Positions 19,718-63,192 of a stretch of 64,000 nt of DNA are shown one piece after another (positions within the stretch are counted from its first letter, which is position 1; every line of letters begins with the position of its first letter). The stretch lies in assembly GCA_965287045.1 (NCBI GenBank), contig OZ336877.1:81406001-81470000 (forward strand). Direction: 5' to 3'. The notes beneath the pieces were generated by a model that worked only from the letters and a program-made list of their open reading frames with translations, was not told the DNA's origin and ran no database searches. The stretch is from Carcharhinus amblyrhynchos. Its lineage: Eukaryota. The translations under genes and the position numbers were made by a program.

Positions 19718-20630
19718 GTCTATGTGGAGTTTGTACCTTCTCTCCGTGTCTGCATGGTGCCCTGGTTTCCTCCCACAGTCCAAAGATGTGCAGGTTAGTT
19801 AGATTGGCCATGCTAAATTGACTCTTGGTGTCAGGGCAACTAACCAGGGTAAATAGAACATAGAAAAACTACAGCACAAACAGGCCCTTCGGTCCACAAG
19901 TTGTGCCGAACATATCTCTACCTACTAGGCTTACCTATAACCCTCAATCCTGCTAAGTCCCATGTACTCATCCAGAAGTCTCTTAAAAGACCCTATTGAA
20001 TCTGCCTCCACCACCACCGAAGGCAGCCGATTCCATGCATCCACCACCCTCTGAGTGAAAAATTTATCCCTGACATCTTCTCTGTACCAACTCCCCAGCA
20101 CCCTAAACCTGTGTTCTCTTGTGACAGCCATTTCAGCCCTGGGAAAAAGCCTCTGAGAATCCACCTGATCAATACCTCTCAACATCTTATACACCTCTAT
20201 CAGGTCACCTCTCATCCTTTGCCTCTCCAAGGAGAAAAGACTGAGCTCTCTCAACCTATCCTCATAAGGCACACCACCCAATCCAGGCAACATCCTTGTA
20301 AGTCTCCTCTGCACCCTTTCAATGGCTTCCACATCCTTCCTGTAATGAGGCAACCAGAACTGAGCACTGTACTCCAAGTGGGGTCTGACCAGGGTCTTAT
20401 ACAGCTGCAGCATTATCTCCCAACTCCTAAACTCAGTTCCTCAATTGATGAAGGCCAGAACACCATACGTCTTCTTAACCACATCCTCTACCTACGAAAC
20501 ATATTTGAGAGTCCTGTGAACCCGGACCCCAAGATCCTTCAAATACATGGAGTTAGGGCCTGAGTGGGATTGTGGTCGGTGCAGACTCAGTGCGCCAAAT
20601 GGTCTCTTTCTGCACGCTAGGATTCTGTGA
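19718..20630 (+). mobile_element. HE1-type V-SINE split by a LINE insertion
   Basis: V-domain (GGTTTCCTCCCACAGTCCAAAGATGTGCAGG) at 19718-19855 continues at 20541-20630; AAATA is duplicated at 19851 and 20541. Confidence 0.85.
19856..20540 (-). mobile_element. 5'-truncated CR1/HER1 LINE
   Basis: ORF 19931-20413 (160 aa) is the RT C-terminus; same subfamily as 49310-51011. Confidence 0.95.
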
Positions 20631-21924: not shown

Positions 21925-24900
21925 ATAGCCAATGAATAGGTGAACAACATCTTACCCCCAACCTCATGAATCTTTATCATGAGCATTAACTTTTTATGTG
22001 GCACCTTACTGAATGCTCTTTTGAAATCCAAATATAGTGGATCCATTGGTTCCCTTTTTAATCATCCTCAAAAAAAACTCCAGCTAAATTTGTTGTAAGC
22101 AACTTCTGTTTTGTAAACCTGTTGACTTTGCCTGATCATACTATGATTTTCTAAGTGCATTGTTAAATTCCCTGAACAGATTAGTACGTTTTCCTAATGG
22201 CTGACATAAAGTTACCTGGTCTCTGTTTTTTTTTCTCTCTCCTTTCTTGAATACTGCAGTTTTTTTCGCTAACTTCCATTAAGCTGGGGATCTTCCAGAA
22301 TTCAGGGGATTTCATAGAACATAGAACATTACAGCGCAGTACAGGCCCTTTGGCCCTGGATGTTGCACCGACCAGTGGAACCAATGTAATGACCTAAACT
22401 ATTCTAATGTTATCCATATGCCTATCCACTGACCATTTGAACGCCCTTAAAGTTGGCGAGTCCACAACTGCTGCAGGCACGGCATTCCACACCCTTACTA
22501 CCCTCTGAGTAAAGAACCTACCTCTGACATCCGTCCTATAACTACCACCCCTTAATTTAAAGCTATGTCCCCTCGTGTTAGCCATCACCATCCGAGGTAA
22601 AAGACCCTCACTGTCCACCCTATCCAATCCTTTGATCATCTTGTATGCCTCAATTAGGTCATTTCGTAACCTTCTCTCTAATGAAAATAACCTCAAGTCC
22701 CTCAGCCTTTCCTCATACAACCTTCCCACCATACCAGGCAACATCCTGGTAAACCTTCTCTGCACCCTTTCCAACGCCTCCACATCTTTCTTATAATGCG
22801 GCGATCAGAACTGTACGCAATACTCCAAGTGCGGCCGCGCCAGAGTTTTGTACAGTTGTAACGTGACCTCATGGCTCCGAAATTCAATCCCTCTACCAAT
22901 AAAAGCTAACACACTGTACGCCTTCTTAACAACCTTATCAACCTGGGTGCCAACTTTCAGGGAGCTATGCACATGTACCCCGAGATCTCTCTGCTCGTCA
23001 ACACTACTAAGAGTCCTTCCATTAGCCCTATATTCTGTACTCCTGTTACTCTTACCAAAGTGAATCACCTCACACTTTTCCATATTAAACTCCATTTGCC
23101 ACCTCTCGGCCCAGCTCTGCAGCTTATCTATGTCCCTCTGCAAACTGTAACATCCATCCTCACGGTCTACAACTCCTCCAACTTTGGTGTCATCAGCAAA
23201 TTTACTAACCCATCCTTCTACACCCTCATCTAGGTCATTTATAAAAATGACTAACAGCAGTGGCCCCAAAACAGATTCTTGACGAACGCCACTTATAACT
23301 GAACTCCAGGTTGAATATTTCCCATAACCACCGCCCTCTGTCTTCTATCAGCTAGCCAATTCCTGATCCAAACTGCTAAATCACCCTCAATCCCATGCAT
23401 CTGCATTTTCTGCAGTAGCCTACCATGGGGAACCTTATCAAACGCTTAGCTAAAATCCATATGTGCCACATCAACTGCCTTACCCTTATCCACCTCTTTG
23501 GTCACCTTTTCAAAAAACTCGATAAGGTTTGTGAGGCACGACCTACCCTTCACAAAACCATGTTGACTATCCCTAATCAATTTATTTCCCTCTAGGTCCT
23601 ATCCCTCTAAATCCTATCCCTTATAATTCTTTCCAAAACGTTGCCCACAACAGAAGTAAGGCTCACTGGTCTATAATTCCCAAGATGGTCTTTACTCCCC
23701 TTCTTGAACAAGGGGACAACATTTGCTATCCTCCAGTCTTCCAGCACTATACCTCTAGCCAATGACGACATGAAGATCAAAGCCAAAGGCTCTGCAATCT
23801 CCTCCCTAGCCTCCCAGAGAATCCTAGAGTAAATCTCATCCGGCCCAGTGGACTTATCTATTTTCATACTTGTAAGAATTGCTAACACCTCCTCCTTATG
23901 TACCTCAATCCCGTCTAGTCTACTACCTGGTATCGCAGTATTCTCCTCGACTACACTGACTTTGTCCTGCGTGAATACTGACAAAAAATACTCATTCAAT
24001 GCCTCTCCTATCTCTTCAGGCTCCATGCACAACTTCCCACTGCTGTCTGTGACTGGCCCTAATCTTGCCCTAACCAATCTTTTATTCTTGACATACCTGT
24101 AGAAAGCTTTAGGATTTTCCTTGATCCTATCCGCCAGAGTCTTCTCATGTCCTCTTCTAAACTCTCTCTTTAGCTCCTTCCTGGCTAATTTATAACTCTC
24201 CAGTGCCCTAACTGAGCCTTCACGTCTCATCTTTACATAAGCCTCCTTCTTCCTCTTCACCAGAGATTCAACTTCCTTAGTACACCACGGTTCCCTCGCT
24301 CAACCACTTCCTCCCTGCCTGACAGGTACATATTTATCAAGGACTTGCAGTAGCTGCTCCTTGAATAAGCTCCACATTTCAGATGTTCCCAGCCCCTGCA
24401 ATTTCCTACTCCACCCTATGTATCCTAAATCTCGCCTAATAGCCTCATAATTACCTTTCCCCCAGCTATAACTTCCGCCCTTCAGTATATGCCTATCCCT
24501 TTCCATCACTAAGGTAAACGTAACTGAATTGTGGTCACTATCACCAAGTGCTCACCTACCTCCAAGTCCAACACGTGCTCTGGTTCATTACCCAGTACCA
24601 AATCCAATGTAGCCTCACCTCTTGTTGGCCTATCTACATACTGTGTCACGAAACCTTCCTGCACACATTGGACAAAAACTGACCCCTCTAACGTGCTTGA
24701 ACTATAGCTTTTCCAATCGATATTTGTAAAGTTAAAGTCCCCCGTAACAACTACCCTGTTACTTTTGCACCTATCCAGGATCATCTTTGCAATCCTTTCC
24801 TCTACATCTCTGGAACTTTTTGGAGGCCTATAGAAAACTCCCAACAGTGTGATCTCTCCTTTCCTGTTTCTAATCTCAGCGCATACTACCTCAATAGACA

Positions 24901-25730
24901 GGTCCACATCAAACATCCTTTCTGCCACTGTAATACTGTCCTTGACTAACAATGCCACGCTTTCCTCTCTTCTACCACCTTCTGTGCTCTGACTGAAACA
25001 TCTGAACCCCGGAACCTGCAACAACCATTCCTGTCCCTGCTCTATCCATGTCTCTGAAATGGCCACAACGTTGAAGTCCCAGGCACCAATTTAGGCTGCA
25101 AATTCGTCCACCTTATTGCGTATGCTCCTCTCTTTAAAGTATACGCACTTCGAACCACCCTCCCGCCTGCCAATACACTGCTGTGACCTAGAAACCTTAT
25201 CCATGACCTCCCTATTCTCATCCTCCTGTACATTGGAGCTACAATTCAGGTTCCCATATCCCCTCTGAATCAGTTTAAACTTCCCCCGAATAGCATTGGC
25301 AAACTCCCCCCCCCCCCCCCCCCCCCCCCCCCCAAGATATTAGTACCCCTCTGGTTCAGGTGCAGACCATCCCTCTTGTAGAGGTCCCATCTACCCCAGA
25401 ATGAGTCCCAATTGTCCAAGTATCTGAACCCTTCCCTCCTGCACCATCCCTTTAGCCACGAGTTCAAATGTTCTCTCTCTCTAATTAGGATTTTGGGAAA
25501 TCAGAACCAGTGCATCCACCAGCTCTATGGCTACCCCATTCGGAACTCTAGGATGTAAGCCGTCAACTCCTGAGGGGTTATGAACTTTTAGTCTCTTAAA
25601 TTTGTACAATAATTTTACCCTCATATCAATTATCTCATACTCCTTGCTTTCATTAGCTCCTTGGTCAACTTCTATTTCAGCTATGCAATTTATCCTCTAC
25701 TATAAAGACCAAACAGATATTTTGTACTTA
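21925..25730 (-). mobile_element. Old CR1 LINE hosting the younger insertion 22313-25481
   Basis: Degenerate RT sequence at 21925-22312 resumes at 25482-25730. Confidence 0.65.
22313..25481 (-). mobile_element. CR1/HER1 LINE, ~3.2 kb: end of ORF1 esterase, then APE endonuclease and RT, frameshifted
   Basis: ORFs 25270-25467 (WDLYKRDGLHLN, SGNH block V), 24509-25066 (ISETW, YRPP, GDFN, TLDLV), 23607-24260, 22805-23269 (FADD) and 22394-22783; CATAGAA tail repeats. Confidence 0.95.
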
Positions 25731-28671: not shown

Positions 28672-29471
28672 AGGGGTGACATGGTGGCACAATGGTCAGC
28701 ACTGCTGCCTCACAGCTCCAAGGACTTAGAACAAAGAACAACCCAGCACGGGAAACAGGCCCTTCGGCCCAATGAGCCCGCGCCGCCACATCACCCTACA
28801 CCTATTCTACCCTGCATGTCTACGAATGGAACCCCTAACTTAGCCAGATTCAGGGGAGAATAGTGTCAATTTGGTAAAACCAATCAGTCTAAGAGCACAT
28901 CTTTGGGGTGTGGGAGGAAACCGGAGCGCCCGGAGGAAACCCACGCAACCACAGGGAGAATGCGCAAACTCCCACAGACACAGGCCATGTATCTGCACAG
29001 CTAGCAGTGCTAGTCACTGAGCTGTTGCGGCGCCCGTCTACCGGTCCAGGATCAAGCACACACACCGACACGAAGTACTAGGCCACTCCCGGAACTTCCA
29101 AGAGCAGCCCACGCATGACCCACCGTGTACATGCCCCTCGTTTGACACGAGGTGGACCTCCTCCTGCGGAATAAAAAGACAAAAACGTTAATCTTACAAG
29201 CCTGCTTGGGTTCAATTCCAGCCTAAGGTGACTGTGTGGAGTTTGTGCATTGTCCCCGTGTGTGCACGGGATTCCTCCTGGTGCTCTGCTTTCCTCCCGC
29301 AGTCTAAAGCTGTATGGGTTAGGTTGATTGGCCATGTTAAATTGCTCCTTAGTGTCAGGGCCTCTATCAGGGTAGATATGTGGGGTACTGGGATAGGACC
29401 TGAGTGGGCTTGTTGTTGGTGTAGGCTTGATGGGCCAAATGGCCTCCTTATGCACTGTAGGGATTCTATGG
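28672..29471 (+). mobile_element. HE1-type V-SINE split by the insertion 28728-29204
   Basis: Head GGTGGCACAATGGTCAGCACTGCTGCCTCACAG at 28672-28727 resumes at 29205 with the B-box, V-domain and GGGATTCTATG tail. Confidence 0.9.
28728..29204 (-). mobile_element. 5'-truncated copy of the extended LINE 3' UTR (structured domain, V-SINE-like segment, CR1 tail)
   Basis: Collinear homology with ~48383-48953; GTTCTTT tail repeats; CTT duplicated at 28725-28727 and 29205-29207. Confidence 0.85.
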
Positions 29472-37587: not shown

Positions 37588-40350
37588 GGGAACAGAATAT
37601 CCAGGGGTATCAGGTGTTTAGGAAGGATAGATGGGAGGAAAAAGGGGGTGGGGTAGCTCTGTTTAATTAAGGATAATATCAGAATGGTAGTAAGAGAAGA
37701 TATAGGCTCCAAAGAGCAAAACGTGGAATCGTTGTGGGTGAAGATAAGGAATAGTAAGGGGAGGAAGACGCTGGTGGGTGTGGTCTATAGACCCCCCAAA
37801 TAATAACTTTGAGGTGGGGCGGGCTATAAACAAACAAATAATTGATGCGTGCAGAAACAGAACAGCAATAATTATGGGGGATTTTAATCTGTATATTGAT
37901 TGAATGACCCAAGTCGGACACGGTGGGCTTGAGGAAGAGTTCTTGGAATGCTGTCAGGATAGTTTCCTTGAACAGTATGTATCGGAACCTATGCAGGAGC
38001 GAGCTACCTTAGATCTGGTACTGTGTGACGAGGCAGGTAGAATTAGGGATCTTCTAGTGAGGGATCCTCTTGGGACGAGTGATCATAGTATGGTTGAATT
38101 TCTGATGCAGATGGAGGATGAGAAAGTAGGGTCCCAAACCCGTGTCCTCTGTTTGAACAGAGGGGAGTATGATAGGATGAGAGCGGAATTGGAGAATGTA
38201 GATTGGGGCCGCAGATTGGTTGGTAGGACAGCTGAGGAACAGTGGAGGATTTTTAAGGAGATCTTTTTCAGTACTCAGCAGATATATATTCCGATGGTAA
38301 AGAAGGACCGTAGGAGAAGGGATAACCAGCCATGGTTATCGAAGGAAATAAAGGAGAGTATTGAATTAAAAGCTGATGCGTTCAGAGTGGCTAAAAATAG
38401 TGGGCGATTAGAAGATTGGGAAAGATTTAAAAAACGACAAAGAATGACTAAGAAGGTGATAAAGAAAGGAAAGATAGAGTATGAAGCTAAACTAGCTCTA
38501 AATATAAAAAATGACAGTAAAAGTTTTTACAAATATATAAAGAAGAGACTGGCTAGAGTGAAGGTTGCACCCTTGGAGGACTAGAGGGGGGATTTAGCGG
38601 TGGGCGATGAGGAAGTGGCTGAGGCTTTAAATAAGTTTTTTGTGCCGGTCTTCACGGAGGAGGACACAAATAGTTTGCCGGATATTAAAGATAGAAGGAT
38701 GGTAGGAGATGAGGTCCTTAATGCGATCACTGTCACTAGAGAGGTAGTGCTTGATAGACTAACAGGACTGAAGGTAGACAAGTCCCCAGGACCGGATGGA
38801 ATGCGTCCCAGGGTTCTGAAAGACATGGCGGGGTGATAGCGGATGCCTTGGTAATTATTTATCAAAATTCGCTGGACTCCGGGGAAGTGCCGGAAGATTG
38901 GAAAATGGCTAATGTTATGCCGCTGTTCAAAAAAGGCAGCAGACAAAAGGCAGGGAATTATAGGCCGGTTAGTTTAACGTCTGTAGTTGGAAAAATGCTA
39001 GAATCCGTCATCAAAGAAGAAATAGTGAGGCACCTAGAAAAGAACGGTTTGATCAAGCAGACGCAGCATGGATTCGTTATGGGGAAGTCGTGTTTAACGA
39101 ATTTACTGGATTTCTGAGGATGTGACTAGTGTGGTAGACAGAGGGGAACAGGTGGATGTGGTGTTTTTAGAGTTCCAGAAGGCGTTTGATAAGGTGCCTC
39201 ACAAAAGGTTGCTGCAAAAGGTTAGGATGCACGGAGTTGGGGGTAAGGTGTTAGCGTGGATAGAGGATTGGTTGTCTAATGGGAAGCAGAGAGTTAGAAT
39301 CAATGGGTGCTATTCTGGTTGGTGACTAGTGGAGTGCCACAGAGATCAGTGCTGGCGCCTCAACTGTTTACCATTTACATAGATGATCTGGAGGAGGGGG
39401 CTGAGTGTAGGGTAACAAAATTTGCTGATGACACAAAGATGAGTGGAAAAGCGAATTGCATGGAAGGCGCGGAAAGTCTGCAGAGAGATCTGGATAGGCT
39501 GAGTGAATGGGTGAGGACCTGGCAGATGGAGTATAACGTTAGCAAATGTGAGGTTATCCACTTTGGCAGAAATAATAGAAGGAGGGATTATTATTTAAGA
39601 GGCGAAAAGCTGCAGCATGCTGCAGAGGGACCTGGGGGTCCTTGTGCATGAGTCGCAAAAACCCAGTCTGCAGGTGCAGCAGGTGATCAAGAAGGCTAAT
39701 GAAATGTTACCCCTTTATAGCGAGGGGGATAGAATATAAAAGTAGGGAGGTCTTGCTGCAACTGTACAGGGTACTGGTGAGGTCGCAACTGGAGTACTGT
39801 GTGCAGTTTTGGTCACCGCATTTGCAGAAGGTTATATTGGCCTTGAAGGGAGTGCAAAGAAGGTTCACTAGGCTGATATCGGAGATGAGGTGGTTAGCCT
39901 ATGAGGAGGGATTGAATAGACTGGGTCTGTACTCGGAGTTTAGAAGGCTGAGGAGGGATCTTATAGAGACATATAAGATAATGAAGGGGATAGATAAAGT
40001 AGAGGTAGAGAGATTCTTCCCGCTTAGAAAGGATAGCAGAACTAGAGGGCACAGCCTCAAAATACGGGGGTAGAGGGGGCAGTTTAGATCGGAGTTGAGG
40101 AGGAACTTCTTCACTCAAAGGGTGGTGAGTCTCTGGAATTCTCTGCCCATTGAAGTGGTGGAGGCTACCTCGCTGAATATATTTAAGTCACGGGTAGATA
40201 GGTTTCTGATAGACAAGGGAATTAAGGATTATGGGGAGAAAGTGGGAAAGTGGAACTGATCTACTTCAGATCAGCCATGATCTCGCTGAATGGCGGGGCA
40301 GGCTCGAAGGGCTAAATGGCCTACTCCTGCTCCTATTTCTTATGTTCTTA
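37588..40350 (+). mobile_element. CR1 LINE, ~2.8 kb of ORF2 (endonuclease and RT) with stops and frameshifts
   Basis: ORFs 37904-38584, 38833-39117 (NYRPVSLTS, QHGF), 39122-39325 (KAFDKVPH), 39307-39651 (FADD) and 39699-40073; TTCTTATG tail. Confidence 0.95.
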
Positions 40351-42815: not shown

Positions 42816-45800
42816 TAAGAACATAAGAAATAGGAGCAGGAGTGGGCCATCTAGCCCTTCGAGCCTGCCCCGCCATTCAGTAAGATCATGGCTGATCTGT
42901 CGTGGCTCAGTTCCACATTCCCGCCCTCTCCCCATAACCCTTAATCCCCTCTCTTATCAAAAACCCATCAACCCGCGTCTTAAAAATATTTAGCGAAGTA
43001 GCCTCCACCACTTCAACGGGCAGAGAATTCCAGAGATTCACCACCCTTTGAGTGAAGAAGTTCCTCCTCAACTCCGTTCTAAACCGCCCCCCCTTTATCT
43101 TGAGGCTGTGCCCCCAAGTCCTACTATCCTTTCTGAGCGGGAAGAGTCTCTCCACCTCTATCCTATCCATCCCATTCATCATCTTATACGTCTCAATGAG
43201 ATCTCCCCTCATTCTTCTAAACTCCAACGAGTATAAGCCCAGTTTATTCAGCCTCTCCTCATTGCTCAACCCCCTCAACTCCGGCATCAGCCTAGTAAAC
43301 CTCCTGTGCACTCCCTCCAAGGCCAAAATATCCTTGCGTAAGTACGGCGCCCAAAACTGCACACAATACTCCAGCTGCGGCCTCACCAATGCCCTATACA
43401 ACCGCAGCAAGACCTCCCTACTTTTATATTCAATCCCCCTCGCTATGAAGGCCAGCATCCCATTAGCCTTCCTGACCACCTGCTGCACCTGCAAGCTGGG
43501 TTTTTGCGACTCATACACAAGGACCCCTAGGTCCCTCTGCACTGTCGCCTGCTGCAGTTTTTCGCCACGTAAGTAATAATCCTTCCTACCATTATTCCTA
43601 CCAAAGTGGACCACCTCGCACTTGCCAACATTAAATTCCATTTGCCAGTTCCTGGCCCATTCGCCCAGCCTATCTAGATCCGTCTGTAGACTCTCCACAC
43701 CCTCCGCACAATTTGCCGTTCCACCAATCTTGGTGTCATCAGCAAATTTCGACACCATACACTCAGTTCCCTCCTCCAGATCATCTATATAAATGGTAAA
43801 TAGCTGAGGCCCCAGCACCGACCCCTGAGGCACTCCACTAGTCACCAACCGCCAATCCGAATAGCACCCATTTACCCCCACTCTCTGCCTCCTATTTGAC
43901 AACCAATCCTCTATCCACGCTAACACCCTACCCCCAACTCCATGTCCCCTGACCTTCTGCAATAACCTCTTGTGAGGTACCTTGTCAAACGCCTTCTGAA
44001 AATCAAGAAAGACCACATCCACCAGCTCTCCTCTATCCACCGCCCTAGACACATCCTCATAGAACTCCAGTAAATTTGTCAGACACGACTTCCCTTTAAC
44101 GAAACCGTGCTGCGTCTGCTCTATCAAGCAATTCCCCTCAAGATGCCTCGCTATTTCCTCCTTGATGACGGATTCTAACATTTTACCTACAACAGACGTT
44201 AAACTAACCGGCCTATAATTCCCTGCCTTTTGCCTGGCACCCTTCTTAAACAACGGCGTAAGATTAGCCGTTTTCCAATCTTCCGGCACTTCCCCGGAAT
44301 CCAGCGACGTCTGGAAAATAACCACCAAGGCATCCACTATCACCTCCGCCATTTCTTTCAGAACCCTCGGATGCATTCCATCCGGTCCTGGCGACTTGTC
44401 CACTATCAGCCCCTCCAGTCTGTCGAGCACCGCCTCTCTAGTAACAGTAATGTCATTAAGGCCCTCCAGTCCTACCATCTTTCCATCTCTAACACCCGGC
44501 AAATTATTCATGTCTTCCTCCGTGAAGACCGAAACAAAAAAGTTATTCAAGACCTCAGCCATTTCCCCATCCCCTACCACTAAGTCCCCCTTCTCATCCT
44601 CTAAGGGACCAACGTTCACCCTAGCCAGCCTCTTCCTTTTTATATATTTATAAAAACTCTTGCTATCCTTTTTTATATTAAGCACTAGCCCAGCTTCATA
44701 GTTTCTCCTACCCTTCTTTGTCAACTTCTTTGTCAATCTTTGTTGACATTTAAACCTCTCTCAATCCTCTTCTTGCCCACTACTCTTAGCTACTCTAAAC
44801 GCCTCCGCTCTTAATTTAACACTTTCCTTCACCTCCTTCGTTATCCATGGCTTATTACCTCTCCTCCTAGGGTCCTTTTTAACCATCGGAATAAATTTCT
44901 GCTGAGCACCAAGAAAGATCTCCTTAAAGATCCTCCACTGCTCCTCAGCAGACCTACCTTCCAACGCGCTCCCCCAGTCCACATTCGCCAATTCTTCTCT
45001 CATCCTACCGTGCTCCCCTCTGTTCAAACAAAGGACGCATGTCCGGGAACCCACTTTCTCCTCCTCCATCTGCACCAGAAACTCCACCATACAATGATCA
45101 TTCTCCCCAAGAGGATCCTTCACCACAAGGTCCCTAATTCTACCCGCCTCATTACATAACACCAGATCCAAGATAGCTTGCTCCCTCGTCGGCTCCAACA
45201 CACACTGTTCAAGGAAACTATCCCGGCAGCATTCCAAGAACAACTCCTCGAGCCCACCGCGTCCAACATGGGTCGACCAATCAATATGTAGATTGAAATC
45301 CCCCATAACTACGGCCGTCCCATTCCTGCACGCCACACTTATTTGCGCATTAACAGCCCGCCCCACCTCCAGATCATTATTCGGGGGCCTATAGATGACA
45401 CCCACCAGCGTCTTCCTCCCTTTGCTGTTCCCAATCTCTACCCACAACGATTCCACTTTCTGCTCCTTGGCTCCAGTATCATCCCTTGCTCCCACCCTGA
45501 TGCTATCCTTAATCAGCAGAGCTACGCACCCCCCCCCCCCACTTTTTCCTCCCGCCTATCCTTCCTAAACACTTGATACCCCTGGACATTCAGCTTCCAG
45601 TCCCTGTCACCTTGCAGCCACGTCTCTGTAATGGCCACCAGATCATATCCATTTGTGCCGAACTGCGCCACCAGCTCATCCACTTTATTCCGAATGCTTC
45701 ATGCATTCAGATAAAGCGCCTTCATCCCAGCCTTCACCTGGACCCTATTTGCCGTAATGCCACCAACCATACTCACGCCCCCTACTCCCTCTATTATTGG

Positions 45801-45881: not shown

Positions 45882-47462
45882 AAAGGTTCAGAGGAAGATT
45901 GGGCTCATCGGTGAGAGTGAAACAACAGATGATCAGATGATCTCGATCCCAATGATGAAGCCCATGAGCTCATTTCAATAATTATTTTGCCAAGAGCCAC
46001 ATTAGCCGCAGAAATATGCTCATCATGAGTACAGCTACATACTGTTGAATGCTAAAATCCCATTCAAGTTTTCCCAAGTCCACTGTTGGAATGCTGAAGC
46101 ATGTGGGGTGAGATGTGGAGCCATACGTGTGATTATCCCTTCACTCATATCACTTCCTTGAATTGCCACAGTCAACCGCTTACTCTTAGTAACAGACAAT
46201 ATGAGTGATAGAATGGATTATCTTGAGTTATATTTCAACAAGATCCTTCCTGATAAAAGCTGGATTAACCAGGCCTACTAATAGCATTCCAACTTAATCC
46301 CTAACCGCAAAGAAGGATGACACAGCACTATCTCTTATTTTGATGCTGAGGCACAGCCAAGCAGATTGGACGGAGACTCAGAAGCATGTGTTTGCTGAGA
46401 GTTATAAGTAAAGGGGAGGACAGCCACAAATACCCTCAGGGCCCCACTGTAAGTACTGTTGATCTTGGGAGAAGGCAGTCAGTTGGTTTACTTTATCAAA
46501 TGTTTCCTCTACAGAATCATTACTACAAGCACAAAGGGGAAGTTGAAATTAGAAATTAGAAATTCTTTAAATTAGAGATGAGGGTGAAATCATGCTTATC
46601 ATGCCTTTCACTGCTGATGCCACTAGACTTTGAATAATCAATGGAAGGGCATGTATCTAGTATGGGGCTGGTGGATGCAATCATCATTGCAAGCACACCT
46701 CCAGTGCACACCTGTCTCATGTAACTGGAAATTATAGTGCTCATTTATAGGTTATGAAGGGAAATTGTATAGGCTTGCTCCTATCTTGCCACACTCCAAT
46801 TTTTATGTTGACCTCTATTCAAATTCACTGAATGTTTCAAAAATAGCTTTTATACTAATTTGCATTTGGCTGCAAAATATATCTAGTCCTATCTGTTTCT
46901 ATTGTGGAGGATGTAGGTATTGGCAATGCCTTCGGCACGGTGAGGAAGGAGTTTGGAAGTTGCTGTGCAAATTTGGCTGTAATGTTAAAATTGTTGATGT
47001 AACCAGGCAACTTCACAAGGCATGATGGGTACAATAATGGAAACACATCTGAAACATTTCCTGCAGAATATTTAAGACTAAATACTGATTCTGAGCCTTT
47101 CCTGGCTCTTTTGCACAGCTACACTATATGATGCCATGACAGATTTGCATAAAGCAATCGATGTACAATACTGAATAAACATTTTCAATCTTAGAAGATT
47201 AAATGACAAAAGTAAGATCAGATAGCTCATCGTTGTACAGTTTTGTGAACAGGCACTAACCCATCCATTCTGAAGCTGCTCTGCAGCATATCATTGATTA
47301 ATTTGCTGGATCAGCCCAGGTTGACCATCAGCTTAACATAAATATCCAGATTGCGCCACAGCTTGCAGTAAACTGAAAATTGTGGTTAGACATACAAGTT
47401 AACTGCAATTGCTAGTTTTACGTATCTAGGCATTGTATTCGGTTGGGTTGCAGCTTTGAACT

Positions 47463-48953
47463 TGCTGATAGTGATGAACAGTGACAGACAATACAGCAGG
47501 ATATAGATAGGCTGGTAAATTGGGCGGTGAAACGGCAGATGAAATTTAATCCAGATAAATGCAAGGTAATGCATTTTGGAAGAAATAATGTAGGGGGGAG
47601 TTATACAATAAATGGTAGGACCATTAAGAGTACAGAAACACAGAGAGACCTAGGTGTGCAAGTTCACAAGTCCTTGAAGGTGGCAGCACAGGTGGAGAAG
47701 GTGGTAAAGAAGGCATATGGTATGCTTGCCTTTATAGGAAGGGGTATTGAGTATAAAAGCTGGAGTCTAATGTTGCAGTTGTATAGAACGTTGGTTAGAC
47801 CACATTTGGAGTTCTGCATCCAGTTCTGGTTGCTGCACTACCGGGAGGACATGGAGGCCTTGGAGAGAGTGCAGAGGAGGTTTACCAGGATGCTGCCTGG
47901 CATGGAGGGTCTCAGCTATGAGGAGAGATTGGACAAATTGGGGTTGTTCTCCCTGGAAAGACAGAGAACAAGGGAAGACCTAATAGAGGTGTTTAAGATT
48001 ATAGGGTATAGACAGAGTGAACAGTGGGAAGCTTTTTCCCAGGTTGGATGCGAAAACCACAAGGGGTCATGGGCTTAAGGTGAGAGGGGTGAGGTATAAT
48101 TCATATGTTAGAGGGAGATTTTTCACACACAGGGTTGTGGGGGCCTGGAATGTACTGCCAAGTAGGGTGGTAGAGGCAGGCATGTTAGAATTGTTTAAGG
48201 CTTACCTAGACAGGCACGCAAGCACGCTAGAGATGGAGGGATGAAAAAGAATGTTCTAGTTGAGGATCAAGAGCCTCAGGACGTTCCTGGGAATTAATAG
48301 ATTCCTGTGGGCCGTCCAACATATTTTATGGCTCACCTGTCTCTTATGCTGGAGCTACTGGGGATCTTCCTTAATGTCTGTATAGGCTGTTGTACGTTTA
48401 TTGATGTCTTTTTTTTTTACATCCACAGGCGATTCGGTCCGCTTTGTTGGCCAACAAGGGGCATACACGCGGTGGGTCGTGCAAGGGCTGCTCTTGGATG
48501 TTGCTTCGAGAGTTGCCTTGCGCTTCACGTCGTTAGTGTATGCTTAAACTGGACCAACTGACGGGCGACACGACAGCTCAGTGACTATCACTGTTTACTG
48601 TGCAGTTACAGGGACCCGGGTTGGATCCGGCTTGGGTCAGTATCTGTGGGAGCTTGCACATTCTCCCTGTGCTTGCGTGGATTTTCTCCGGGTGCTCCGG
48701 TTTCCTCCAACACCCCAAAAATGTGCTTTTAGGCTGATTGGTGTTAATAAATTGTCCCTAAATTGGACCCCTCTTAATCTGGCGCACATATAATTCTCTA
48801 AATTTGCACCCCTTTATTGTGGAGTCCACAAGATGTAGTCAAGAGTCATAGGTAGAAGAAGGATTGGAATGAGGCACTCACTGAGTGTTAAAATGGGTGG
48901 CGCCGGCTTGTAGGGCCAAAGGGCCTGTTTCCTGTGCTGTGTTGTTCTTTGTT
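47463..48953 (+). mobile_element. 5'-truncated CR1 LINE with a ~700-nt composite 3' UTR
   Basis: RT C-terminal ORFs 47527-48078 and 48017-48244, then hairpins, a V-SINE-like segment and the CR1 tail; TSD CTTTGAACT at 47454-47462 and 48954-48962. Confidence 0.9.
48436..48555 (+). other. Putative structured RNA domain (three-way junction) in the LINE 3' UTR
   Basis: GGTCC/GGACC closing stem, CTTTGTT/AACAAGG hairpin and an ~83-nt hairpin GCATACAC...GTGTATGC; the same pairings occur in 29043-29158 (-). Confidence 0.65.
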
Positions 48954-49139
48954 CTTTGAACTAGAACATCAACAATCACATCAGGAAGACCATTGCAGTA
49001 TATGTGTTTAAAACAACTGAGGCCTAAAGCTATGAAAGTATATTGCAGTTTCATTTATGCAGCTGTGGAATTTGAAGTCTTTGTTTGCATATGAATGTCG
49101 CAAACCCACTCTATCTCCTAGAATATGAGTGGTGAATAG

Positions 49140-49309: not shown

Positions 49310-51011
49310 ATAGAACATAGAACATAGAACACTACAGCACAAACAGGCCCTTCGGCCCACAAGTTGCGCCGATCACATCATCACCTACCAACCTACAGAC
49401 CTATCTATAACCCTCAATCTCATTAAACCCCATATACTCATCCAGAAGTCTTTTAAAAGACCCCAGCGAGTTCGCCTCCACCACCACTGACGGCAGCCGA
49501 TTCCATTCACTCACCACCCTCTGAGTGAAAAACTTACCCCTAACATCACTTCTGAACCTCCCTCCCCGCACCTTAAATCTGTGTCCTCTCGTAGCGACCA
49601 TTTCAAACCGGGGAAATAGCCTCTGAGAGTCCACCCTATCTATTCCTCTCAACATTTTGTAAACTTCTATCAGGTCGCCTCTCAACCTTCGTCTCTCCAG
49701 GGAAAAGAGTCCCAGCTCCCTCAACCTAACTTCATAAGGCATGCCTCCCAGTCCAGGCAACATCCTTGTAAATCTCCTCTGCACCCTTTCAATAGCTTCT
49801 ACATCCTTCCTATAGTGAGGCGACCAGAACTGCGCACAATACTCCAAATGAGGCCTGACAAGGGTCTTATAAAGTTCCAGCATTACCTCCCGACTCCTAA
49901 ACTCAATCCCTCGATTAATGAAGGCCAGTACACCATACGCCTTCTTGACCACCTCCTCCACCTGCGAGGCCGATTTAAGAGTCCTGTGGACCCGGACCCC
50001 AAGATCCTTCTGCTCCTCAACACTACTCAGACTTCTGCCCTTGATAGTGTACTCGTTCATCCCGTTGGTTCTGCCAAAATGGACGACTACACATTTATCC
50101 GCGTTGAAGTCCATCTGCCACTTCTCCGCCCAGTCCTGCATCCTATCTATGTCCTGCTGCAACTTTTGCCATCCTTCCAGACCATCCACAACACCACCGA
50201 CCTTGGTGTCATCAGCGAACTTACTTACCCATCCCTCCACTTCCTCATCCAGGTCATTTATGAAAATGACAAACAACAAGGGTCCCAGAACAGATCCTTG
50301 AGGCACTCCGCTGGTGACTGACCTCCATTCAGAAAAAGCCCCATCCACAACCACTCTCTGCCTTCTGCAGGCAAGCCAGTTCTGGATCCACAAGGCCAAA
50401 GGCCCTTGGATCCCATGCCCTCTCACCTTCTCAAGAAGTCTTGCATGGGGGACCTTATCAAACGCCTTGCTGAAGTCCATGTACACTACGTCCACGGCAC
50501 TTCCTTCGTCAATGTGTTCAGTCACATTATCGAAGAACTCAACTAGGCTTGTAAGGCACGACCTGCCCTTGACAAATCCATGCTGACTATTCCTGATCAT
50601 GTCAAACCTCTCCAAATGTTCGTAAATCTTGTCCCTCAGAAGCCTCTCCATCAGCTTACCAACCACTGAGGTCAGACTCACCGGTCGGTAATTTCCCGGG
50701 CTATCTCTGTTCCCTTTCTTAAAAATAGGAACTACATCCGCAATCCTCCAATCCTCTGGAACCTCTCCCGTCTCCATTGACGACGCAAAGATCATCGCCA
50801 GGGGCTCTGCAATCTCTTCCCTCGCCTCCCACAGTATCCTGGGGTACATCCCATCTGGTCCCGGCGACTTATCTACCTTGATAGAATTCAAAAGTTCCAA
50901 CACATCCTCCTCCTTAATATTCACGTACTCAATCCTTTCCATCTGCTGCAAATCCATAACAAAATCTCCCAGATCGGCTTCCACCGTGAATACTGAGGCG
51001 AAGTACTCGTT
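49310..51011 (-). mobile_element. Young 5'-truncated CR1/HER1 LINE
   Basis: TAGAACA tail repeats, high CpG retention and an intact RT ORF. Confidence 0.95.
49401..50984 (-). CDS. CR1 ORF2 reverse transcriptase portion (527 aa uninterrupted), TE-derived
   Basis: All RT motifs are intact (MDFSKAFDKVPH, GVPQGSVLGP, FADDTK). Confidence 0.9.
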   Translation of the reverse strand: MEADLGDFVMDLQQMERIEYVNIKEEDVLELLNSIKVDKSPGPDGMYPRILWEAREEIAEPLAMIFASSMETGEVPEDWRIADVVPIFKKGNRDSPGNYRPVSLTSVVGKLMERLLRDKIYEHLERFDMIRNSQHGFVKGRSCLTSLVEFFDNVTEHIDEGSAVDVVYMDFSKAFDKVPHARLLEKVRGHGIQGPLALWIQNWLACRRQRVVVDGAFSEWRSVTSGVPQGSVLGPLLFVIFINDLDEEVEGWVSKFADDTKVGGVVDGLEGWQKLQQDIDRMQDWAEKWQMDFNADKCVVVHFGRTNGMNEYTIKGRSLSSVEEQKDLGVRVHRTLKSASQVEEVVKKAYGVLAFINRGIEFRSREVMLELYKTLVRPHLEYCAQFWSPHYRKDVEAIERVQRRFTRMLPGLGGMPYEVRLRELGLFSLERRRLRGDLIEVYKMLRGIDRVDSQRLFPRFEMVATRGHRFKVRGGRFRSDVRGKFFTQRVVSEWNRLPSVVVEANSLGSFKRLLDEYMGFNEIEGYR

Positions 51012-52179
51012 ATGAAAGAATCCAGCTCTAAAATAGGAGCTATGAGATTGATATAATGATGCTCCTTGGAAGTAGGGATTAAAAATTAAAGGCAGTGCTC
51101 AAATCAAAGCAGAGTTCATCTGCTGGACAAAAGGAAACCTTTTCAAAAATGTAAAAACTAGTCTCGGCATGATTTTGTGCTCAGGAACAATAATGTTCTG
51201 TAACATTGAAATGGGAAACACTTCACCATAAGGCATTTCTGAAAAAAAGAGAAACTGACCTATACATCACCTCAACAAGACATTGATAAAAGCAAAGAGC
51301 AATGGACAAATCTAGTAAAGATTGTCACTGAGCTTTACAGCACAGAAAGAAGCCATTGCGTCTCTCCTGCTCATTAAGCAACTGTCTATTCTATTCCCAT
51401 TTTCCTGCACTTGGTCTTGTATGCTGTGGCGTTCCAAGTGCTTAAATGAGAGGGGGTTTCCTTTGAGCCTGAATTGAACTAGTGTCTTAAGGATGTCAGT
51501 TTTAATCATCTACACGCCTCTGCTTTACCAGCTGAACTATCTGTTGTGTTGTACAAAGAATTGATCGAACCCCATTTGGACCCCATCAGGATATTCAATT
51601 ACGAGAAAGGATTTAGAAAGTCACACTTATGTTTCAGAAAGTGGGATTTTGAGGTACATTTTCAAGATTATGAAAAGTTGTTTGCTTTACCGAAAAGCTC
51701 AACTATTAGGGGGATGGAAGTTTAAAATTGGAGGTCAGAAATAAGGCTCACGTACAAACTCATAATGCGGTCATTTGAAAAGTCCTTCTCATTTTTAGAG
51801 GTGTTGTTCTATTTATTTTAAACTGGTTAATGTTACCACTAAAATAGTGACAAGGAATTTCAGACATATGTTTGCACCTCCACAACATAATTTTAGGAGT
51901 AAAATGGAACGTTAAGTTTTTTTCACTTTCGTTGCAGAAATAAGTAATTGAAGCAGACAGCATCAAGCATTTCAGGTGACAATCAGATACTTTTTTGGAG
52001 AACAAAAATGTCTGAGGCATATGCTAAATAGATGATTTTCTGTTGTGGTATCTTGTTTTACATGGTCATTTGAGAATGCAGTTGTGTGCAGCATGAACAT
52101 TTGATCACTTCCCCATCCTGAAATTGTATGAAGTACTAATTTTGAATGAAACCTCCAGTAAGGTTATACTTTGGTAGTA

Positions 52180-62055: not shown

Positions 62056-63192
62056 ATGGCGTTGGGGGTAAGGTGTTAGCGTGGATAGAGGGTTGGCTGC
62101 CTAATAGGAGGCAGAGAGTTGGTATCAATGGGTGCTATTCTGATTGGCGGTTGGTAACTAGTGGAGTGCCGCAGGGATCGGTGCTGGGGCCTCAGCTATT
62201 TACCATTTATATAGATGATCTGGAGGAGGGGGCTGAGTGTAGGGTGACGAAATTTGCTGAGGACACAAAGATAAGTGGAAAAGCAAATTGTGCGGAGGGT
62301 GTGGAAAGTCTGCAGAGGGATCTAGATAGGCTGAGCGAGTGGGCGAGGACCTGGCAGATGGAGTACAATGTTAGCAAGTGTGAGGTTATCCACTTTGGCA
62401 GGAATAATAGTAGGAGGGATTACTATTTAAAGGGCGAAAAGCTGCAGCATGCTACGGTGCAGAGGGACCTGGGGGTCCTTGTGCATGAGTCGCAAAAACC
62501 CAGTCTGCAGGTGCAGCAGGTGATCAAGAAGGCGAATGGGATGCTGGCCTTTATAGCGAGGGGGATAGAATATAAAAGCAGGGAGGTCTTGCTGCAACTG
62601 TACTGGGCACTGGTGAGGCCGCAGCTGGAGTACAGTGTGCAGTTTTGGTCGCTGCACTTGTGTAAGGATATTTTGGCCTTGGAGGGAGTGCAGAGGAGGT
62701 TCACTAGGCTGATACCGGAGATGAGGGGGTTAGACTATGAAGAGAGACTAAATAGACTGGGTCTGTACTCGTTGGAGTTTAGAAGGATGAGGGGGGATCT
62801 TATAGAGACGTATAAGATAATGAAAGGGATGGATAGGATAGAGGTAGAGAGATTCTTCCTGCTCAGAAAGGACAACAGGACTAGAGGGCACAGCCTCAAG
62901 ATAAGGGGGGGGGGGGGGGTTGCAGTTTAGAACGGAGTTGAGGAGGAACTTCTTCACTCAAAGGGTGGTGAATCTGTGGAATTCTCTGCCCGTTGAAGTG
63001 GTGGAGGCTACCTCACTAAATATATTTAAGACATGGGTAGATAGGTTTTTGTAGGCAAGGCAATTAAGGGTTATGGGGAGAAAGCGGGAAAGTGGAACTG
63101 AGCCACTTCAGATCAGCCATGATGTTGTTGAATGGTGGGGCAGGCTCGAAGGGCTAGATGGCCTACTCCTGCTCCTACTTCTTATGTTCTTA
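62056..63192 (+). mobile_element. 5'-truncated CR1 LINE
   Basis: ORF 62004-62930 encodes RT, with FADD changed to FAED; same subfamily as 37588-40350 and 42816-45881. Confidence 0.95.

Follow-up and report, generated by a model that had tools for sequence, protein, structure and literature searches.

The window, by which the whole analysed stretch of 64,000 nt from Carcharhinus amblyrhynchos is meant (contig OZ336877.1, positions 81,406,001 to 81,470,000), contains two copies of a 120-nt fold, both of which are the 3' ends of CR1-type LINEs. A preliminary description made from the sequence had singled out this fold as unrecognised and had missed its context, a CR1 3' UTR in which it lies between an acceptor-like tract and a captured V-SINE. 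The parts of the UTR follow one another in the order stop codon, lineage spacer, acceptor-like tract, 5-10 nt, fold, SINE head, V domain, spacer and CR1 tail, and those of the two window copies are as follows.

47457..48259 (+): 3' end of a CR1 ORF2, 5'-truncated, lineage A; copies align from here, and others extend 5' into the reverse transcriptase (RT)
48260..48396 (+): lineage-specific spacer, with 20-48% ungapped identity between lineages in the 40 nt directly upstream of the tract
48397..48428 (+): 3' splice-site-like tract (branch-like TTGAT, T/C tract, CAG/G), kept in all lineages
48436..48555 (+): 120-nt fold of lineage A, predicted by folding (closing stem, 7-bp hairpin, long arm with internal loops)
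48563..48640 (+): degenerate tRNA-derived SINE head, by alignment to the window's free SINEs
48641..48746 (+): V domain of a V-SINE, with ~90% identity between lineages
48747..48895 (+): fast-evolving spacer with many gaps, serving as an internal near-neutral control (p-distance 0.36-0.54 among A, B/C and E)
48896..48959 (+): terminal CR1 tail with a stem-loop and TGTTCTT-type repeats, the common 3' end of the copies and the same in family S
29164..29193 (-): acceptor-like tract of lineage B, by sequence (branch-like TTAAC, T/C tract, CAG)
29043..29158 (-): fold of lineage B, by folding and alignment (young; copies 97-98% identical)
28875..29035 (-): degenerate SINE head and V domain of lineage B, by alignment
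28728..28787 (-): terminal CR1 tail of lineage B, by alignment

The ORF2 fragment at 47457..48259 ends at a TAG matching the stop codon of a sister family; it gave no Pfam match by itself, and the ORF2 of its relative L070 matches RVT_1 (E 3.9e-32). Stop codon and fold are about 175 nt apart in lineage A and 75-90 nt apart in lineages B, C and E. The lineage-B window copy is 5'-truncated at 29207 and nested, in opposite orientation, in an older free SINE.

Genome searches (2.9 Gb) with each of the two window copies returned 3,273 and 1,956 candidates, an exact-pattern count gave 5,941 copies of lineages A and D/C/B (0 with the reversed-pattern control), and a pattern with one mismatch gave 5,352 copies of lineage E (1 with the reversed-pattern control); taken together, these counts put the fold-bearing family, with its three lineages, at no fewer than about 11,000 copies. 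Sequence data from six organisms contain the stretch, and none of the sets containing it is recorded as RNA. A common 3' end is shared by 30 of the 30 best matches of lineage A and by 30 of 30 of lineage B, and the 5' ends of these top loci are ragged and reach into ORF2/RT sequence. The CR1 trait of a fixed 3' end with stem-loop and microsatellite, combined with ragged 5' truncation, is present. Full-length copies (L070, L063 and L243) measure about 4.8 kb and consist of ~200-nt 5' monomers, an SGNH-type ORF1 and an RT-encoding ORF2, whose endonuclease part was recognised by eye in the translation. The ORF1 of a full-length B copy matches OSK (E 2e-7, above the cut-off) and Lipase_GDSL_2 (E 5e-6, below the cut-off), and passages of one source describe an esterase ORF1 in vertebrate CR1 and a CR1-group content of 22-34% in sharks and rays (PMC13343379); the V-SINEs together with the amount of CR1 would suit a cartilaginous fish. 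The element is a CR1-type LINE, placed by its ORFs and 3' end, with a tree drawn from this genome's elements only.

The 5' UTR of L070 (2960-3360), L063 and L243 consists of monomers of ~200 nt arranged in tandem. At the end of each, a TATA box lies ~27 nt before an initiator-like CTCATTG, the exact start of these full-length copies. The monomers are a monomer-fed promoter in an ORF1-bearing CR1; 5' subunits of such a kind are mentioned for ORF1-less elements in the same source (PMC13343379, passages). At L242, two fold-clade elements stand head to tail, one ending where the ORF1 fragment of the next starts. Near the start of contig C1, the copy pairs L172/L174, L178/L180, L217/L220, L218/L219, L094/L098 and L109/L110 share flanking DNA; such pairs are segmental duplications and do not count as separate insertion events.

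The closest sister CR1 family, termed S, comprises at least 2,508 copies with a UTR of ~75 nt that lacks fold, tract and SINE, and other CR1 families of the window have tails of about 70-100 nt. A tree of ORF2 DNA with 26 rows was rooted at its midpoint, two CR1s of the window serving as outgroup. All 18 rows that carry the fold fall into a single clade (99/100) placed within or next to S, lineage A being basal and E and C/B derived. Given this position relative to short-tailed S, the 3' UTR module is a gain, by which the clade acquired about 400-550 nt. None of the 44 S loci reaches the ORF1 start, and no full-length S or A copy was found among the loci collected. The 5' 66 nt of the fold are collinear with the S tail, at most 3 of 300 shuffles scoring as high in 6 of 11 copies (all A or E); the match is weak in the other five (12-80 of 300 shuffles) and weakest in young B. 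From this alignment, the 5' arm of the fold seems to descend from a second copy of the old tail that was later remodelled. The data do not support an origin of the 3' arm by inverted duplication, as 83-328 of 500 shuffles score equally high.

The stems quoted in the preliminary description are indeed present at 48436-48555 (+) and 29043-29158 (-), and both window copies are predicted to form the same three-way junction of closing stem, 6-7-bp hairpin and long arm, the last with ~34 pairs. Their calculated energies are -53.8 and -55.1 kcal/mol, with z scores of -3.9 and -4.4, and 0 of 200 shuffles reached the same stability; the opposite strands are less stable (z -2.2 and -1.0). In eight copies the sense strand gave z -1.6 to -6.3 against 0.0 to -2.7 for the antisense strand, and in a 1.3-kb scan of one B copy z -3 was passed only by the fold and the terminal tail. 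The most stable folds belong to younger D, C and B copies (z -5.3 to -6.3) and the least stable to some A and old-E copies (z -1.6 to -1.7, including the A copy L003 at -1.7). RNAalifold recovered the same topology from 32 copies, with a covariation term of -2.6 of -33.5 kcal/mol. The GGUC/CUU bases of the internal loop are nearly invariant across lineages. Some of the neat pairing in the plus-strand window copy is private to it, and the lineage-A majority shows an A-C mismatch there.

A covariance model, proposed earlier as a check, was built from 32 copies and matches the window twice, at 137 and 114 bits, both window copies having belonged to the training set; the next match has 11 bits. 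A known Rfam family, which would have spoken against a new element, did not appear in the Rfam search (0 matches at the gathering score across the window), and searches of 551-801 bases around each copy gave chance matches only (E 0.49-7.9). The reported lack of hammerhead, HDV, tRNA, 5S and 7SL signatures held, with no Rfam match, 0 ARAGORN predictions and no hammerhead core. The Rfam covariance models for tRNA, 5S, 7SL, snRNA, vault, Y and other RNAs gave no match at the gathering score, twister motif and hammerhead core were absent, and an HDV-like descriptor matches only one of four lineage copies. A search for distant relatives or a stand-alone source with the covariance model in 94 of the 296 loci collected gave nine matches of 64-126 bits and no weak tail; to the same end, profile searches with 79 and 217 sequences revealed no new class, and an exclusion pattern gave almost only lineage E among the 100 matches listed of 3,847. 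As modelled, the fold is a real RNA structure in a LINE 3' UTR and is part of the LINE, not a free-standing RNA; the RNA probably adopts this fold in cells. The suggestion of a Drosha-sized microRNA hairpin fared poorly: the length suits a ~35-bp stem, but the base of the long arm is a three-way junction where a pri-miRNA would have single-stranded flanks, no 22-nt arm stays invariant, as the apical loop and the arms vary between lineages and both arms differ in E, and cleavage would sever the element's own RNA.

The difference between lineages is 0.16-0.19 in the fold and 0.49-0.59 at four-fold sites of ORF2 (0.49 for B-E, 0.50 for A-E and 0.59 for A-B), where B-E is the firm codon comparison and the A codon figures come from two copies, a usable ORF2 tail being absent from 4 of 6 A, 1 of 6 E and 2 of 5 C copies. 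The fold alignment excluded 4 of 166 copies that are truncated within the fold. Fold divergence is roughly threefold below that of silent sites of the same element. Corresponding values are 0.14 at second codon positions (B-E), 0.11-0.19 in the SINE head, 0.10-0.11 in the V core, 0.10-0.17 in the tail and 0.36-0.54 in the downstream spacer, and fold and V domain are kept about as well as the second codon positions of the RT. Because their divergence lies below that of the four-fold sites and of the UTR spacer, the fold and the V domain are under purifying selection. It is almost certain that the fold belongs to the 3' UTR of a single clade of CR1 LINEs and changes slowly there.

The claim that pairing is maintained by compensatory changes proved overstated, although pairing is largely kept: two-sided change at the lineage level occurs in only 2 of 46 pairs, namely U-A/U-G/C-G in the short hairpin and G-C/G-U/A-U in the long arm (the latter visible only with lineage E added), and the other changes are mostly one-sided G-U exchanges. 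Among 31 distinct copies, 93.6% of cells pair and 5 of 46 pairs show any two-sided change, a number reached by 10 of 500 shuffles in a test inflated by relatedness; depending on the measure, 0-64 of 500 shuffles equal the data, with the same inflation. Pairing survives 24 of 30 lineage substitutions, hand-counted along the tree, versus 61 of 113 private mutations (Fisher p 0.012), or 27 of 30 lineage changes if helix slips are counted as kept (p 0.0002); since the structure was drawn from the same sequences, this counts as support and not as proof. Private, effectively random mutations in this G/U-rich strand keep pairing in 54%. Lineages B and E arrived at the same short hairpin by two shared steps, a T-to-C change and the loss of one base, but took them in reverse order, and fixed pairing breaks occur in A (U-U) and in E (the terminal pair and one arm pair). 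The earlier idea of a selected cis-acting RNA element gains support from the low divergence, the pairing ratio of lineage to private changes and the sense-strand bias, and this sequence evidence points to a sense-strand RNA element selected in active master copies.

The acceptor-like tract is kept in all lineages while its upstream neighbours diverge, and 74 of 91 randomly sampled copies possess both the YAG and the pyrimidine tract, which may bind splicing factors. Reading the T tract as an antisense poly(A) signal meets a hexamer that varies between lineages. GTGAGT donors lie ~35-40 nt after the start of full-length B and C copies, in which the 5' UTR is unspliced. This donor is kept in B and C (C-type L243; L070 at 3000 and 3201) though the preceding exon sequence differs; C additionally carries a second donor, which the B copies examined have lost, and an acceptor immediately upstream of ORF1. 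Genome pattern searches for retrocopies joining a donor to the 3' acceptor found 0 for the B donor-1 junction and 0 for the donor-2 junction, and none of the 91 randomly sampled copies had a spliced appearance. Because no retrocopy joins donor and 3' acceptor, the transposing RNA is concluded to escape splicing although the acceptor is kept. Five copies without a normal tract, obtained with exclusion patterns (2 + 3 matches), turned out not to be spliced.

Contigs from runs that are only presumed to be RNA, and that carry no strand, start or level information, hold a single, indecisive hint of splicing into the 3' acceptor: in run X3, the consensus of eight contig ends leaves the genome match at the acceptor position. 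In run X1, one joint in two contigs fits splicing of the 5' UTR. Depth rises at the acceptor in X3 and X8, at a point where cross-mapping of lineages begins as well, and no donor-to-3'-acceptor joint occurs among the 15 listed of 25 joints from such contigs. Two independent B insertions, L077 and L078 (both at ~1500), begin at the acceptor and have five upstream letters in common; these letters are identical to the last ones of the exon that precedes donor 2 in C-type copies, and they extend a local palindrome; fold-back priming on that palindrome and truncated spliced copies explain them equally well. Two further roles for the tract were rejected: an alternative coding exon, as the acceptor-to-long-arm distance is 30, 31, 33, 35 or 36 nt across subfamilies (hand-counted) and the frame is lost, and pairing of the acceptor with the V domain, which is unstable in whole-UTR folds of five copies.

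The tRNA-derived V-SINE is found as free copies in the window and as a copy within the fold-bearing UTR, where its V domain matches by eye the V-domain sequences of MER6, Ac1 and frog V-SINEs in the available part of the PMC6887750 supplement. In the captured head the A-box region is altered, the B-box region is deleted in B, C, E and some A copies, and ARAGORN finds 0 tRNAs; the intact Pol III A/B boxes and independent transposition that define a V-SINE are not seen in the captured SINE. Only 252 SINE heads lack the fold end upstream, and the 100 listed of these have no common start or flank and resemble scattered truncations or small deletions, for which reason the captured part is judged not to move alone. 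The embedded V domain keeps shared differences from the free SINEs and is therefore not being homogenised with them. It is more conserved (0.10-0.11) than the fold (0.16-0.19), which may form just a portion of a bigger unit. A second branched structure is predicted for the SINE head and the start of the V domain (48563-48680; 28940-29035 (-)), similar in whole-UTR folds of F, C, B and E copies and partly so in A.

Several described systems share single traits with this arrangement. The elasmobranch HER1 LINE/HE1 V-SINE pair, compared by description (PMC3747384, in part), likewise involves a CR1-type LINE and a tail type shared with a SINE; here, in contrast, an autonomous LINE has taken up the SINE head and V domain into its own 3' UTR, where they follow a new fold and an acceptor tract. 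Among stringent LINEs, the 3' stem-loops of ZfL2-1/2 and UnaL2 (PMC4176376, in part) are also structured 3' UTR RNAs under selection, and the 5' arm of the fold looks derived from a tail of this type; unlike them, the fold is 120 nt long, branched, ~400 nt from the 3' end and additional to a normal terminal stem-loop. The MER6 MITE (PMC6887750, in part) is likewise a non-SINE element bearing a V domain without a working SINE promoter, but MER6 is a DNA MITE, whereas the present V domain resides in autonomous retrotransposon RNA and is measurably conserved between active lineages. LINE parts inside SINEs (PMC5786205) and individual Alu/L1 chimeras at L1 3' ends (PMC13174262) have been described, and the passages concerned in these two sources mention no LINE lineage retaining a SINE. 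No match was found in the part of the PMC4824008 supplement that was available, and the literature consulted yielded no description of the fold or of a CR1 with a V-SINE 3' UTR; Repbase or Dfam may already catalogue the consensus.

The function that we favour, though tentatively, is that of a cis element for processing and export of the unspliced full-length LINE RNA, by analogy with retroviral transport elements. The fold would act on the element's own RNA as a protein-binding platform and, together with the upstream acceptor-like tract, would allow the full-length transcript to be processed and exported while it remains unspliced. A transcript that carries strong donors would have to leave the nucleus unspliced, a kept but unused acceptor beside a stable fold would fit such a need, and the near-invariant GGUC/CUU bases are what might be expected of a binding site; processing and export thus seem preferable to another post-transcriptional step. 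The retroviral CTE, like the fold, has a long irregular hairpin with conserved internal loops. The present likeness to the CTE (PMC4829213, in part) and to the L1 NXF1-binding element (PMC3045867, in part), reported in human L1 as an export element at the ORF2/3' UTR border, concerns position and shape alone, the structure apparently following the last ORF of an RNA that leaves the nucleus with unused splice sites; unlike the CTE, the fold is a three-way junction and has no Rfam sequence match. Against an export role, no known export-element motif was found, S reached at least 2,508 copies although it lacks the fold, covariation is thin in a strand where 54% of random mutations keep pairing, breaks are fixed in A and E, the V domain is conserved more than the fold, and a synthetic L1 did not need the L1 export element, which even had a slight inhibitory effect there (PMC3045867, in part).

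The resemblance of the fold's 5' 66 nt to the S tail (6 of 11 copies), together with the binding of ORF2p to the 3' stem-loop in zebrafish stringent LINEs (PMC4176376, in part), opens another reading, which appears rather unlikely: the remodelled duplicate tail could be a second binding site for ORF2p (or ORF1p) that aids RNP assembly or priming in cis. It has to contend with the weak match in 5 of 11 copies, with the counterpart of the tail's GAAG stem-loop being buried in the long arm and with a terminal tail that is intact and conserved (0.10-0.17), and it leaves the conserved acceptor tract unexplained. In a further reading the acceptor would be used in some tissues, joining the 5' exon and removing both ORFs to leave a ~500-nt structured non-coding RNA, with the fold tuning a self-limiting switch or decoying dsRNA or Microprocessor sensors. 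Strong donors and a conserved acceptor do flank both ORFs, the eight X3 contig ends and the depth step in X3 and X8 (runs presumed to be RNA) fall at the acceptor, and a long arm of this many pairs would suit a decoy; such a spliced RNA carries the tail, however, and should be retroposed, but donor-1 and donor-2 junction copies number 0, no joint is seen among the 15 listed of 25, and the depth step also marks lineage cross-mapping, which makes this reading unlikely. It is quite improbable that the fold arose only as a side effect of duplications in a G/U-rich strand and is carried along with no function of its own. The 54% of random mutations that keep pairing, the z of -1.6 to -1.7 in some A and old-E copies and the lack of a fold in S would fit this; the threefold lower divergence than at four-fold sites and in both flanking spacers, the parallel changes in B and E and the greater stability of younger D, C and B copies would not. 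Ribozymes occur in other retrotransposons. A novel self-cleaving ribozyme, to which size and three-way junction would correspond, is nevertheless very improbable here: 5' ends are somewhat more frequent in the 85 nt leading up to mid-fold (14 of 91 copies; 0.15-0.25% versus 0.04-0.10% per nt further up), but they are scattered without a sharp end, 35 of 91 copies extend at least 990 nt upstream, neither an Rfam ribozyme nor a core motif was detected (the HDV-like descriptor fits one of four lineage copies), and cleavage at this place would split the ORFs from the tail.

Taken beyond the fold, the favoured processing and export role could be extended to a CR1 lineage that rebuilt its 3' end as a terminal-exon-like module of decoy acceptor, duplicated-tail fold and captured V domain controlling splicing and export, a possibility that we regard as doubtful. 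If it were true, the V domain would be conserved by cis work on retroelement RNA, without Pol III or host exaptation, which would give a first direct handle on the persistence of SINE conserved domains; rival ideas on the conservation of such 'highly conserved domains' have been put forward in PMC5499810 and PMC6887750 (both in part). Vertebrate CR1 tails are short, including those of other families in this genome, and the fold clade is exceptional in its long UTR, which holds an RNA structure not represented in Rfam. A LINE that bears a V domain but no functional Pol III head and the sister family S, which has no V domain, form a natural matched pair for a cell-culture assay, and the contrast of S with A, B and E makes the function of both fold and V domain directly testable. 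The thousands of acceptor-bearing copies could also be exonised in host genes.

The window holds further CR1 sequences. Two copies of another family (37595-40350 (+) and 42816-45591 (-)), 81% identical, form a large inverted pair, with a third copy at 62058-63192. Additional short-tailed CR1 families lie at 1354-2137, 19853-20540, 22313-25090 and 49316-51098, and at least four distinct tail types are present in the window and the loci.
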